A stretch of DNA of 64,000 bases from Waddliaceae bacterium (lineage in GTDB: Bacteria; Chlamydiota; Chlamydiia; Chlamydiales; Waddliaceae): the NCBI GenBank assembly GCA_963724325.1, contig CAVRUH010000007.1:288001-352000 (forward strand), read 5' to 3'. Below are positions 43,140 to 55,472 of the stretch, in pieces. The position numbers and the translations under genes were made by a program. Every line of letters starts with the position of its first letter. Positions within the stretch are counted from its first letter, which is position 1. Below the pieces are notes generated by a model. That model saw only the letters and a program-made list of their open reading frames with translations. It did not search any database and was not told the DNA's origin.

Positions 43140-43760
43140 CGTAAGCGTCAAACTAAGTATTTCCGGTTTGGAGTGACCCAATTTATTGGGTCTTTTTCCG
43201 AGCCGAATTTATTCGGCTCGGTGGAGGGCGACACCTTGCCCTCCTTAGGTGAATGGCGAAATCTTGCCATGCACAGGGCCGAATAAATTCAGCCCTGAAA
43301 AAGACCTAATGAATTAGGTCACTCCAAATTAGACTGAGCGTTGAGTTAGGCAACGGCTCCGGTTTGACGCTTACGTATTTCCGGTTTGGAGTGACCCAAT
43401 TTATTGGGTCTTTTTCCGAGCCGAATTTATTCGGCTCGGTGGAGGGCGACACCTTGCCCTCCTTAGGTGAATGGCGAAATCTTGCCATGCACAGGGCCGA
43501 ATAAATTCAGCCCTGAAAAAGACCTAATGAATTAGGTCACTCCAAATTAGACTGAGCGTTGAGTTAGGCAACGGCTCCGGTTTGACGCTTACGTATTTCC
43601 GGTTTGGAGTGACCCAATTTATTGGGTCTTTTTCCGAGCCGAATTTATTCGGCTCGGTGGAGGGCGACACCTTGCCCTCCTTAGGTGAATGGCGAAATCT
43701 TGCCATGCACAGGGCCGAATAAATTCAGCCCTGAAAAAGACCTAATGAATTAGGTCACTC
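43140..43760. repeat. tandem array of 218-bp type A multi-hairpin units (third unit interrupted by intron)
   Basis: GTATTTCCGG starts at 43157, 43375 and 43593; units appear identical; preceded by CGTAAGCGTCAAAC at 43140. Confidence 0.93.
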
Positions 43761-45665
43761 GTGCGCCACGAGGCGTCATTCTATCAGTGATGGGAAGGTC
43801 ATCACTAGGTAAGTTAAACCCAAACAACCTATACCAAGTCATTGGGCTCTGGAGGTAACAAAATGAGTTAAGCGTATGACAGGGAAGATGCAGGCCGTGT
43901 GATTGAGCTCCGTTATTAATAGATCTAGGAGGCCGACACTGTGAGTGTTGATGGAAGGCAATATCACGTTTACTCGCTAAGGGAATGAGAAACGGGACTC
44001 CTCGGGGTCGTAGAGCAGGGCATGTATCGAAGATAGAATGATGAACGTGGGATATCCTCTAGCTCTTCTAGATAGAAGTACCATCTCCCTAGTATAAAAG
44101 CGAGGAAGATGGGATGGCGAAGAGGAAGTCAGATGGATTCATAGTACCGATGAAGGGACGAACAAGGAGGGCAAAATGCCTCCGCGGAGTCACTGGAGGG
44201 AAGGAATCCTCGGCTTTTTATCAATCTGAATATGGAAACGTATGAGTACAATAGAGACTGCAATCCCAAAGCGGGATACGGACACGAAACTTGCAAGAGT
44301 AGCTTGGCTCTCTGCAAAGGATCCTCGTAAGGAATTTACATGTTTAATGCATTTCTACAACGAGGAATCACTTCTAAAATGCTATCAAACGCTGGATGGA
44401 AAGAAGGCGGTTGGTATCGACAAGGTGACAAAAGACCACTATGGGTTAAACCTCAGAGAAAATCTTAACAACCTTCTGGAACGCATGAGGAAGATGGCCT
44501 ATAGACCAGGTAATATCAGGGAAGTACTGATCGAAAAGGAAGATAAGCCAGGTGCATATCGACCACTTGGTATCAGTAATTTTGAAGATAAGATGATCCA
44601 GATGCAAACGGCTAGAATACTGGAAAGTATATATGAACCAATATTCAAGAACTGCTCATTTGGTTTCAGACCAGGTAAAAGCTGCCATGATGCTATCAAA
44701 GCACTGCATAAATTTCTATACACAAACGAAATTGATACAGTTATTGATATGGACATGGCAAACTTCTTTGGTACCATAGATCACAAGATCTTGGAAGATT
44801 TCATGCGAATGAAAATCAAGGACCCAAAGTTTATGAGATACATCATTAGAATGTTCAAAGCTGGTATAATATCAGAAGGAGAACTTAGAATGACGGAGGA
44901 AGGAGTACCTCAGGGGTCGGTATGCAGCCCGATTATGGCTAACATATACGCGCATTATGTCTTGGACACATGGATTGAAGAAATAATTCAACCCAAATGT
45001 TGTGGACAGGTGAAACTCTTCCGGTACGCTGATGATGCTATCATATGCTGTGAAAAAGAGCAAGATGCAAAAAGAATCCTGGAAGTACTGGATAAACGTC
45101 TTGCAAAATTTAATCTCAAATTAAATAAAGACAAAACCAAGGTTGTACCTTTCTCAAAGGCAAAAGCCGGTAAAGGCATACAACAGGGAACCTTTGACTT
45201 CCTAGGATTCACATTCTACCTCGGTAAATCCAAGATGGGTAAATGGATACCAAAATTGAAGACTGCAAAGAAAAGATGTGTGACGAAACTGAAACGAGTC
45301 ACAACATGGGTTAAAGAAAACAGGAACAAATACAAACTAGTCCCATTATGGAAAAAGTTCTGCTCAAAACTGAGGGGACACATCCAATACTATGGGGTCT
45401 CCTTCAACTTCGCGAATGTAAAACTATTCATAGAAGAGTCCAAAAAGACATTCTTTAAATGGATGAACCGCAGAAGTCAAAGAAGATCTATGACTTGGGA
45501 AAAGTTTGATAGGTTTCGACTAAAACACCCGTTACCCGCAGTGGCTATTAAACATAGGCTATTTTGAGAGAACGAGCGAGTGGTAGGTCGGGAGCCCACT
45601 GCCTTAATTGGGCACGGTGGGATCTAATGAGGGGGGAGCCGGGTGACCGGTCTCCTCTACTCTCT
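43761..45665 (+). mobile_element. group II intron copy 1 (1905 nt, IIB-like RNA, endonuclease-less IEP)
   Basis: 5' GTGCG; stem 43776-43785/44032-44041; domain III-like AAGTCAGAT..CATAGTACCGATGAAG; DV 45592-45624 with AGC triad and AC bulge; DVI with bulged A at 45659; removal restores the repeat unit. Confidence 0.95.
44242..45567 (+). CDS. ltrA: group II intron reverse transcriptase/maturase, no HNH domain
   Basis: KAVGID, RPLGI...EDK, SFGFRPG, D..NFF..IDH, GVPQGS..SP..ANIY, RYADD, FDFLGF, X domain LRGH..YYG. Confidence 0.95.
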   Translation: MSTIETAIPKRDTDTKLARVAWLSAKDPRKEFTCLMHFYNEESLLKCYQTLDGKKAVGIDKVTKDHYGLNLRENLNNLLERMRKMAYRPGNIREVLIEKEDKPGAYRPLGISNFEDKMIQMQTARILESIYEPIFKNCSFGFRPGKSCHDAIKALHKFLYTNEIDTVIDMDMANFFGTIDHKILEDFMRMKIKDPKFMRYIIRMFKAGIISEGELRMTEEGVPQGSVCSPIMANIYAHYVLDTWIEEIIQPKCCGQVKLFRYADDAIICCEKEQDAKRILEVLDKRLAKFNLKLNKDKTKVVPFSKAKAGKGIQQGTFDFLGFTFYLGKSKMGKWIPKLKTAKKRCVTKLKRVTTWVKENRNKYKLVPLWKKFCSKLRGHIQYYGVSFNFANVKLFIEESKKTFFKWMNRRSQRRSMTWEKFDRFRLKHPLPAVAIKHRLF

Positions 45666-53295: not shown

Positions 53296-55200
53296 GTGCG
53301 CCACGAGGCGTCATTCTATCAGTGATGGGAAGGTCATCACTAGGTAAGTTAAACCCAAACAACCTATACCAAGTCATTGGGCTCTGGAGGTAACAAAATG
53401 AGTTAAGCGTATGACAGGGAAGATGCAGGCCGTGTGATTGAGCTCCGTTATTAATAGATCTAGGAGGCCGACACTGTGAGTGTTGATGGAAGGCAATATC
53501 ACGTTTACTCGCTAAGGGAATGAGAAACGGGACTCCTCGGGGTCGTAGAGCAGGGCATGTATCGAAGATAGAATGATGAACGTGGGATATCCTCTAGCTC
53601 TTCTAGATAGAAGTACCATCTCCCTAGTATAAAAGCGAGGAAGATGGGATGGCGAAGAGGAAGTCAGATGGATTCATAGTACCGATGAAGGGACGAACAA
53701 GGAGGGCAAAATGCCTCCGCGGAGTCACTGGAGGGAAGGAATCCTCGGCTTTTTATCAATCTGAATATGGAAACGTATGAGTACAATAGAGACTGCAATC
53801 CCAAAGCGGGATACGGACACGAAACTTGCAAGAGTAGCTTGGCTCTCTGCAAAGGATCCTCGTAAGGAATTTACATGTTTAATGCATTTCTACAACGAGG
53901 AATCACTTCTAAAATGCTATCAAACGCTGGATGGAAAGAAGGCGGTTGGTATCGACAAGGTGACAAAAGACCACTATGGGTTAAACCTCAGAGAAAATCT
54001 TAACAACCTTCTGGAACGCATGAGGAAGATGGCCTATAGACCAGGTAATATCAGGGAAGTACTGATCGAAAAGGAAGATAAGCCAGGTGCATATCGACCA
54101 CTTGGTATCAGTAATTTTGAAGATAAGATGATCCAGATGCAAACGGCTAGAATACTGGAAAGTATATATGAACCAATATTCAAGAACTGCTCATTTGGTT
54201 TCAGACCAGGTAAAAGCTGCCATGATGCTATCAAAGCACTGCATAAATTTCTATACACAAACGAAATTGATACAGTTATTGATATGGACATGGCAAACTT
54301 CTTTGGTACCATAGATCACAAGATCTTGGAAGATTTCATGCGAATGAAAATCAAGGACCCAAAGTTTATGAGATACATCATTAGAATGTTCAAAGCTGGT
54401 ATAATATCAGAAGGAGAACTTAGAATGACGGAGGAAGGAGTACCTCAGGGGTCGGTATGCAGCCCGATTATGGCTAACATATACGCGCATTATGTCTTGG
54501 ACACATGGATTGAAGAAATAATTCAACCCAAATGTTGTGGACAGGTGAAACTCTTCCGGTACGCTGATGATGCTATCATATGCTGTGAAAAAGAGCAAGA
54601 TGCAAAAAGAATCCTGGAAGTACTGGATAAACGTCTTGCAAAATTTAATCTCAAATTAAATAAAGACAAAACCAAGGTTGTACCTTTCTCAAAGGCAAAA
54701 GCCGGTAAAGGCATACAACAGGGAACCTTTGACTTCCTAGGATTCACATTCTACCTCGGTAAATCCAAGATGGGTAAATGGATACCAAAATTGAAGACTG
54801 CAAAGAAAAGATGTGTGACGAAACTGAAACGAGTCACAACATGGGTTAAAGAAAACAGGAACAAATACAAACTAGTCCCATTATGGAAAAAGTTCTGCTC
54901 AAAACTGAGGGGACACATCCAATACTATGGGGTCTCCTTCAACTTCGCGAATGTAAAACTATTCATAGAAGAGTCCAAAAAGACATTCTTTAAATGGATG
55001 AACCGCAGAAGTCAAAGAAGATCTATGACTTGGGAAAAGTTTGATAGGTTTCGACTAAAACACCCGTTACCCGCAGTGGTTATTAAACATAGGCTATTTT
55101 GAGAGAACGAGCGAGTGGTAGGTCGGGAGCCCACTGCCTTAATTGGGCACGGTGGGATCTAATGAGGGGGGAGCCGGGTGACCGGTCTCCTCTACTCTCT
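53296..55200 (+). mobile_element. group II intron copy 2 (1905 nt)
   Basis: Constant 9535-bp offset from copy 1; same ends; the one difference noticed is C45545 vs T55080 (A/V). Confidence 0.95.
53777..55102 (+). CDS. ltrA: group II intron reverse transcriptase/maturase, no HNH domain
   Basis: 441 aa, identical to 44242-45567 except one residue near the C-terminus. Confidence 0.95.
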   Translation: MSTIETAIPKRDTDTKLARVAWLSAKDPRKEFTCLMHFYNEESLLKCYQTLDGKKAVGIDKVTKDHYGLNLRENLNNLLERMRKMAYRPGNIREVLIEKEDKPGAYRPLGISNFEDKMIQMQTARILESIYEPIFKNCSFGFRPGKSCHDAIKALHKFLYTNEIDTVIDMDMANFFGTIDHKILEDFMRMKIKDPKFMRYIIRMFKAGIISEGELRMTEEGVPQGSVCSPIMANIYAHYVLDTWIEEIIQPKCCGQVKLFRYADDAIICCEKEQDAKRILEVLDKRLAKFNLKLNKDKTKVVPFSKAKAGKGIQQGTFDFLGFTFYLGKSKMGKWIPKLKTAKKRCVTKLKRVTTWVKENRNKYKLVPLWKKFCSKLRGHIQYYGVSFNFANVKLFIEESKKTFFKWMNRRSQRRSMTWEKFDRFRLKHPLPAVVIKHRLF

Positions 55201-55472
55201 CATAACAGATCCTTAAATTTGGAGTGACCCAATTCATTGGGTCTTTTTCAGGGCTGAATTTATTCGGCCCTGTGGATGGCAAGATATCGCCGTTCACCGT
55301 GCCCAATAAATTGAGCACGGAAAAAGACCCAATGAATTGGGTCGCTCCATAACAGATCCTTAAATTTGGAGTGACCCAATTCATTGGGTCTTTTTCAGGG
55401 CTGAATTTATTCGGCCCTGTGGATGGCAAGATATCGCCGTTCACCGCGCCCAATCAATTGGGTCGCACCATA
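55201..55472. repeat. type B multi-hairpin array, right part (unit tail, one full 147-bp unit, one internally shortened unit)
   Basis: TGGAGTGACCC at 55220 and 55367. Confidence 0.92.

Follow-up and report, generated by a model that had tools for sequence, protein, structure and literature searches.

Probable homing of a class E-type group II intron into RAYT-associated REP repeats in a Waddliaceae bacterium

Group II introns are generally found between genes and in insertion sequences (ISs), and the reading of a DNA hairpin is described as a trait of class C (IIC) introns (PMC12584367, PMC4424553, PMC3522654). Class C introns at terminators and attC sites, as outlined in PMC4424553 and PMC7923331, are multi-copy and intergenic, lack an endonuclease (En) domain, and insert into palindromic targets a few bases 3' of the stem. 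IS elements are the targets of RmInt1 and E.c.I2-I4, for which PMC3522654 and PMC6698660 describe homing into a multi-copy mobile sequence specified by pairing, with partial occupancy and a preference for the template of the lagging strand. Bacterial class E introns (e.g., S.me.I4 and Cl.be.I2; PMC5894124, PMC3753933) have an IIB-type RNA ('IIE'), three exon-binding sites (EBS1, EBS2 and EBS3) and no En domain. Repetitive extragenic palindromes (REPs) are targeted by ISPpu9/10, ISPa11 and IS1397, which are 100% associated with REPs and keep a fixed position in them (PMC1525189); in the table of that paper only two of nine copies of a P. putida group II intron are at REPs. The present analysis concerns a group II intron found twice in a 64,000-nt stretch of DNA (the window, to which all window coordinates refer) from a Waddliaceae bacterium (assembly GCA_963724325.1, contig CAVRUH010000007.1, positions 288,001 to 352,000 of the forward strand). 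It is a class E-type, En-less intron that probably retrohomes by ordinary base pairing into REPs associated with a RAYT (REP-associated tyrosine transposase), and the palindrome itself is probably not the signal.

The window intron shares with class E a match to the Rfam model RF02005, the lack of an En domain, and EBS1, EBS2 and EBS3. In contrast, its intron-encoded protein (IEP) is only 37% identical to that of S.me.I4, its 3' end is CT and not AY, and its target is a RAYT-associated REP. The features listed above for class C are shared as well, but IIC introns are described as lacking EBS2 and as having an EBS1 of 3-4 bp, whereas in the window intron EBS2 covaries and pairs with the 3' arm of the stem, and EBS1 is 5 bp long. 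The IEP is 31% identical to a class C IEP. Compared with RmInt1 and E.c.I2-I4, the host element is a 25-nt non-coding REP and not a transposase gene; the REP-targeting ISs differ in using DNA transposases or recombinases. The repeat and its transposase resemble described RAYT (TnpA-REP) systems with their REP, REPIN and BIME arrays (10.1101/279083, PMC8266576, PMC3733652) in that a Y1 HUH protein, present in one copy and carrying HYH and Y---NP motifs, is flanked by tagged perfect palindromes that form inverted doublets and tandem arrays. A literature search found no group II intron homing into REPs, in a body of work made up mostly of papers open without subscription and taken without their supplements, where target lists could hold REP-like flanks. 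REPs appear to be an undescribed target class for group II introns, and the mechanism is most likely a known one.

The two near-identical introns noted in a preliminary description of this DNA were recovered. Each is 1905 nt long with GTGCG...CTACTCTCT ends, and they differ only at intron position 1785. Both are inserted in the context GAAAAA-GACC(T/C)AATGAATT(A/G)GGTC-ACTC on the 5' side and CA on the 3' side. The source genome (G000; 2.37 Mb in 11 contigs) has a third, 5'-only copy (G000:C1:876338-876599), made up of intron positions 1-340 minus 134-212; the 79-nt deletion takes out EBS2 and EBS1. The earlier observation that the ACTC/CA motif is shared between different repeat subtypes extends to this truncated copy, which lies in a third REP subtype. 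All three G000 copies are inside REP repeats (135 repeat cores in 2.37 Mb), and chance placement is excluded. A contig from another study joins position 43760 to 45666, the empty form, although any copy of that repeat subtype would give an identical join. Sequencing reads gave no further flanks of the window intron. The near identity of copies at separate loci would imply recent mobility.

A member of the same genus, G195, has eight full copies of a related intron (IEP 83% identical, DNA 81%), all of them at CACTY|CA behind its own REP stem variants. The preliminary description's view of a multi-copy intergenic REP target therefore holds for all eight G195 copies too, and the use of a REP family by a non-IIC intron is supported in two species. 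Twenty-two empty G195 sites fit the target pattern, an occupancy of 8 of about 30 compared with 3 of 135 in G000. Among 401 genomes of the phylum, REP-inserted copies were found only in G000 (3) and G195 (8), beyond one match with two mismatches.

The intron has the domain I-IV and V-VI structure, the GUGYG start and the bulged A of group II introns. RF02005 (domains I-IV) matches both window introns with 109 bits; RF00029 itself gave no match to the window intron. The 33-nt domain V with its AGC triad, already recognized in the preliminary description, was confirmed. At 45594/45622 the window intron, like the G195 copies, has G-A in place of the conserved G-U pair of domain V; most of the relatives shown have G-U. 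The CT 3' end is common to 44 of 68 relatives.

The 441-aa IEP, encoded in domain IV, stops after the thumb region. In a group II reverse transcriptase (RT) tree (LG+G4, 18 rows, 280 columns, no named class F reference) it forms a clade with S.me.I4, the disrupted class E intron of pRmeGR4b (PMC5894124), and the R478 intron (SH-aLRT 92.9 / UFBoot 92); class D and class C references fall outside. A larger quick tree (51 rows) left the deep forks open. RF02005 also matches S.me.I4, while class D introns match D1D4-2 and class C introns D1D4-3/-1; RmInt1/RmInt2 (class D) and a pSymB intron taken as class C match models other than RF02005. This mapping of models to classes is empirical, and the plasmid introns were named from the description in PMC5894124 (disrupted copy, copy numbers) and not by accession. 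A PDB search with the IEP returned only class C, ML and CL RTs (E 1e-34 to 1e-25) and no class E structure. By its RNA model, its three EBSs, the lack of an En domain and the tree, the window intron groups with class E in a comparison that covered class C, D and E references. It does not group with class C, from which it is separated by an EBS2 that covaries and pairs 5/5, a 5-bp EBS1, and a different IEP and RNA model. The earlier impression of an IEP that is class E/F-like and non-IIC is borne out as class E-like, and placing the protein in the phylogeny puts it outside class C.

Relatives of the intron were collected as 135 related loci plus genome searches, with a 5' end located by an nhmmer profile for 120 of 166 loci. 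The covariation alignment consists of 93 distinct domain I sequences after de-duplication; since these relatives are not phylogenetically independent, the figures are descriptive. EBS1 (exon -1 to -6) and EBS2 (-9 to -12) account exactly for the ten strongest covariations between intron and exon. Mutual information (MI) is 0.7-1.7 for EBS1 with its intron-binding site (IBS1) and 0.51-0.81 for EBS2/IBS2, where Watson-Crick pairs occur in 62-72% versus 25-27% expected. For EBS3 and exon +1 the MI is 1.27, with 87% Watson-Crick pairs (n=68). Covariation with the exon end thus confirms the GAGTG at 43943-43947 as EBS1, as the preliminary description had it, and adds EBS2 and EBS3, which were overlooked there (Table 1). 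In the window intron EBS2-IBS2 is paired 5/5 (3-4 Watson-Crick, 1-2 G-U) and EBS3 pairs with C+1. Across the lineage 5/5 pairing is seen in 18 of 92 introns and 4/5, the mode, in 44 of 92, so that the window intron is at or above the norm. EBS2a-IBS2a pairing of the IIB1/IIB2 type, described in PMC8643678 and expected 2 nt upstream of EBS2, gave no lineage-wide signal (Watson-Crick 0.17 and 0.25 for intron position 154 against -13 and -14 in the 93 introns); despite this null result, U154/A-13 pairing is possible in the two REP introns.

The REP core, GACC-N10-GGTC-RCTC, occurs 135 times in G000, in 36 clusters that range from lone copies and inverted doublets to arrays with as many as 27. An inverted partner lies within 200 nt for 96 cores. 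Although open reading frames (ORFs) of at least 150 aa make up 80% of the genome, 129 of the 135 cores are outside them. The REP strand of the repeat has the order TGGAGT-palindrome-TTT, and the intron, on the opposite strand, splits the tag TG/GAGT. The hairpin folds as 7 bp with a 4-nt loop; the perfect 8-bp stem claimed earlier would leave a loop of 2 nt. The only Y1 transposase match in G000 (G000:C5:207307-207846, 180 aa) has HYH and Y---NP motifs, the latter given as the class 2 (TnpA-REP) signature in 10.1101/279083. An array of 13 REP cores adjoins this gene, starting about 60 nt upstream. The protein scores 79.3 bits against NF047646, slightly below the cut-off of 80. Among the 401 genomes searched from the phylum, 26 have RAYT homologs, and TGGAG followed by a stem of at least 6 bp was present at 22 of 30 fetched homolog loci versus 12 of 165 control stretches. 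These sequences mark the repeat as the cognate REP of a RAYT; binding and cleavage of the REP by this protein are putative. The tag is TGGAG(T), and not the GTAG or CGTC at the foot of the stem that define the families described in PMC3733652; 'GGAG' is absent from the main text of two REP/RAYT surveys that were searched. RAYT tag function is treated in PMC8266576.

An IS701-like element (eight copies listed) duplicates whole hairpins, and two of its copies (C1:772308-773790 and C1:933760-935242) lie in inner hairpins of REP arrays, which therefore host two different parasites. A second intergenic repeat family (CAGGATATG..GATCGCA), with 166 copies genome-wide, occurs in the window at 12936-12977, 21988-22171, 49035-49076 and 63315-63356. 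This family, different from the REP, is targeted by a serine-recombinase element of G000.

Pairing goes far in accounting for the G000 sites. The EBS1 sequence (GAGUG) is the invariant tag of the REP family, TG/GAGTG, which the intron splits, and EBS2 pairs with the host-specific 3' arm. A rule of CACTY|C plus 5/5 EBS2 pairing finds 134 sites in G000, of which 125 are in REP stems; for the intergenic sites the figure is 115 of 117. With CACTC only, 124 of 131 are in REP stems. REP occupancy at 3/3 is expected under the 5/5 rule (p 0.81). The EBSs also follow the targets. For example, exon -10 changes together with EBS2 (A:T in the window intron, G:C at five of eight G195 sites), the nearest non-REP relative (L056, 76% DNA identity) has no hairpin and matching EBS changes, and L012 and L107, with introns 93% identical, target different repeats with changed EBS.

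IBS2 (-12 to -8) lies inside the 3' arm of the REP hairpin and is paired in every local fold, so that folding and EBS2 pairing are mutually exclusive. In equilibrium folds IBS1 is buried at 3 of 11 occupied sites locally (L004, L006 and L033) and at 10 of 11 in a 170-nt fold, because the doublet partner pairs the entire REP, tag included. Of 87 distinct targets in the lineage, only 7 have a perfect stem of at least 6 bp that ends no more than 8 nt from the site (15 shuffles gave 0-5), and two of the seven are these REP introns. Folding was unusually good in 13 of 59 rebuilt lineage targets, with the site anywhere: loop centre, arm or foot. The preliminary description had proposed IIC-like targeting by a hairpin and a short IBS1. 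A full EBS2-IBS2 pairing is found instead, which it had itself named as speaking against this idea.

All 11 copies are on the locally G-rich strand by both flanks (p about 5e-4); the REP cores of G000 are split 65:70. The G-rich strand is presumably the template of the lagging strand, and gene-strand skew may play a part here. The bias fits En-less homing into single-stranded DNA at a replication fork, by analogy with RmInt1, which shows a lagging-template bias and En-less homing of this kind (PMC6698660). In such a scheme the spliced ribonucleoprotein (RNP) would reverse-splice into lagging-strand template while this is briefly single-stranded, displacing the REP fold at the same time or afterwards, and the IEP would probably read one or two extra flank positions (candidates A-13, T-15 and A+2). 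Insertions into genes would be purged, leaving occupancy in REPs only. RAYT-driven spread of REPs would keep supplying harmless homing sites, each insertion destroying the tag of its REP.

Several observations weigh against, or limit, the reading of retrohoming by ordinary base pairing. The strand skew is a local proxy and is weak at L004 and L007. The REP sample comes from two genomes of one genus. A relaxed 4/5 rule in G000 places REPs at only 127 of 247 sites. In G195, where the pairing rules were scanned over 800 kb, a quarter of the genome, all eight targets mismatch EBS2 at -9 (pairing is 4/5); a rule allowing this mismatch gives 24 sites, only 6 of them in REP stems, and under a 4/5 rule the count is 6 of 61. 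The 8 sites that pair 5/5 are without exception non-REP, and all are empty. Across the lineage no strongly conserved distal exon base was seen. IIE introns are described as able to splice in vitro without EBS2-IBS2, with its homing role left open (PMC3753933), so that its use in homing here is inferred. Outside ORFs, the REP share in G195 is 5 of 6 under the -9-mismatch rule and 5 of 10 under the 4/5 rule; when T-15 and A+2 are added to these rules it becomes 6 of 9 and 6 of 10. Pairing alone under-predicts REP use in G195, and hence a further filter exists. From the site counts this may be selection, bases read by the IEP, or structure, all of which are confounded in a REP.

If the filter were structure, the IEP could bind the folded REP stem in single-stranded DNA as in class C, with the RNA pairing only the ACTC tail and C+1. 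A palindrome is present at 11 of 11 occupied sites, with stems that differ but are compensated, the gap from stem to site is 4 nt as in IIC, the target is probably single-stranded, EBS2 is mismatched at -9 in G195, and pairing alone under-predicts REP use there. However, the compensation belongs to the REPs themselves and is seen in free copies, EBS2 is intact and covarying, and IBS1 would be inaccessible at the three locally buried sites. The L003 stem is weak (-2.3 kcal/mol), upstream hairpins are rare in the lineage, and neither RNA nor IEP is class C; such IIC-like targeting is improbable. An intermediate form, a structure-assisted targeting gained by the class E lineage, is also unlikely. 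Here the IEP would capture the folded REP or doublet at the fork, the RAYT tag would give EBS1 its toehold and EBS2 would then invade the stem, a hybrid of IIC shape reading and IIB pairing; it would imply that three parties depend on one another, a domesticated RAYT making sites and the intron inactivating them by splitting the tag. The earlier idea of hairpin-guided, IIC-like targeting is not supported, given an intact EBS2 and an IBS2 in the stem arm; the G195 counts leave room for some structural contribution.

Selection could be the main filter if the intron goes into many sites that allow pairing and its occupancy is confined to REPs chiefly because genic insertions are lost. Of the 120 non-REP pairing-compatible sites in G000, 94 are in ORFs of at least 150 aa, compared with 6 of the 135 REP cores, and the G195 REP share climbs from 6/24 to 5/6 once ORF sites are removed. 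Yet all 11 targets have A-16, T-15, A-13, A-12, T-11 and T-6 in common, and the ten with a 3' exon C+1 and A+2 as well. The invariant REP tag is also the EBS1 sequence in the two species, which points to adaptation to REPs, and even under the 4/5 rule finding 8/8 copies in REPs has p about 0.004. Survivorship as the main cause is doubtful. Far less credible still is passive spread, i.e., a single ancestral insertion copied along with its REP by the RAYT or by repeat recombination and not by retrohoming. REP arrays are tandemly amplified and a RAYT gene is present in G000, but the copies occupy different REP subtypes, and from within a few bases of the site onward their 3' flanks are unrelated, which largely refutes it. 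The RT is intact, the strand bias is 11/11, and G195 has the most copies, while no RAYT homolog was found there with the G000 RAYT as query (four Y1 matches there are without REP flanks). Pairing-directed retrohoming of a class E-type intron is the probable explanation.

Other members of the lineage are found in a variety of repeats. L011, L014, L018, L111, L112 and L125 are inserted near the centre of palindromes, with full EBS pairing; these palindromes we tentatively take to be attC-like. L107 and L108, from a different branch, also use the TGGAGTG REP family, with their site 12-13 nt past the tag (5' exon), and L012, the sister of L107, sits in the loop of another palindrome. Short repeats of the CACAGAG and ATCCTG types host L062, L063, L105, L122 and L128, and L035, L068, L073, L097 and L118, respectively. 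L029/L037 are in an apparent IS200 transposase gene and L028 is in domain V of another intron. Targeting of attC is described mainly for class C; fragments of IIB and class E introns have been reported behind attC-like structures, where a role of structure was speculated (PMC7923331).

Coordinates of the intron and repeat features are collected in Table 1. In the surrounding DNA, three paralogous ORFs, each of about 1000 aa, stand in tandem (26785-36409) with REP doublets in both spacers, and paralogous ORFs of 464 and 479 aa (51520-52914 and 55529-56968), with no NCBIfam match, flank REP array 2. A 1441-aa ankyrin and leucine-rich-repeat-like protein is encoded at 38709-43034 on the minus strand; ankyrin effector models match it only below cut-off.

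Table 1. Intron and REP features of the window (positions within the 64,000-nt stretch).
Feature	Position	Strand	Remarks
Group II intron copy 1, class E-type	43761..45665	+	1905 nt, GTGCG...CT; empty join in a contig from another study
EBS2 (UUAAU)	43916..43920	+	pairs exon -8 to -12; from covariation and pairing count
EBS1 (GAGUGU)	43943..43948	+	5 Watson-Crick pairs, exon -1 to -5; U/T mismatch at -6
EBS3 (G)	44010	+	pairs exon +1 (C)
Intron-encoded RT/maturase, copy 1	44242..45567	+	441 aa, YADD, no endonuclease domain; TIGR04416 312.4 bits (cut-off 300)
Domain V	45592..45624	+	33 nt, AGC triad 45593-45595, AC bulge
Domain VI	45629..45662	+	bulged A at 45659
Group II intron copy 2	53296..55200	+	EBS2 53451-53455, EBS1 53478-53483, EBS3 53545
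Intron-encoded RT/maturase, copy 2	53777..55102	+	one residue differs from copy 1
Target REP of copy 1 (inverse strand)	43739..43760	+	palindrome 43739-43756, IBS2 43749-43753, IBS1 43755-43760, IBS3 C45666
Target REP of copy 2	53274..53295	+	palindrome 53274-53291, IBS2 53284-53288, IBS1 53290-53295, IBS3 C55201
REP array 1	43154..45716	.	three units of 218 bp, all inverted REP doublets that have inner hairpins; copy 1 lies in the last
REP array 2	52930..55470	.	147-bp doublet units, interrupted by copy 2
Empty REP doublet, same family	29895..30020	.	
Empty REP doublet, same family	33208..33333	.	one arm degenerate
Empty REP doublet, same family	56999..57123	.	GCTC variant

The intron adds REPs maintained by a domesticated RAYT to the safe harbours of group II introns, of which IS elements, terminators and attC sites are known. 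The mode would be one in which EBS1 locks onto the invariant tag and EBS2 tracks the host-specific stem. With IBS2 in a hairpin arm, the system provides a natural test of whether class E introns need EBS2-IBS2 for homing, and of whether any non-IIC intron reads DNA structure. Quick retargeting within the lineage to other small repeats and attC-like centres suggests a compact, En-minus homing RNP that is easily reprogrammed.

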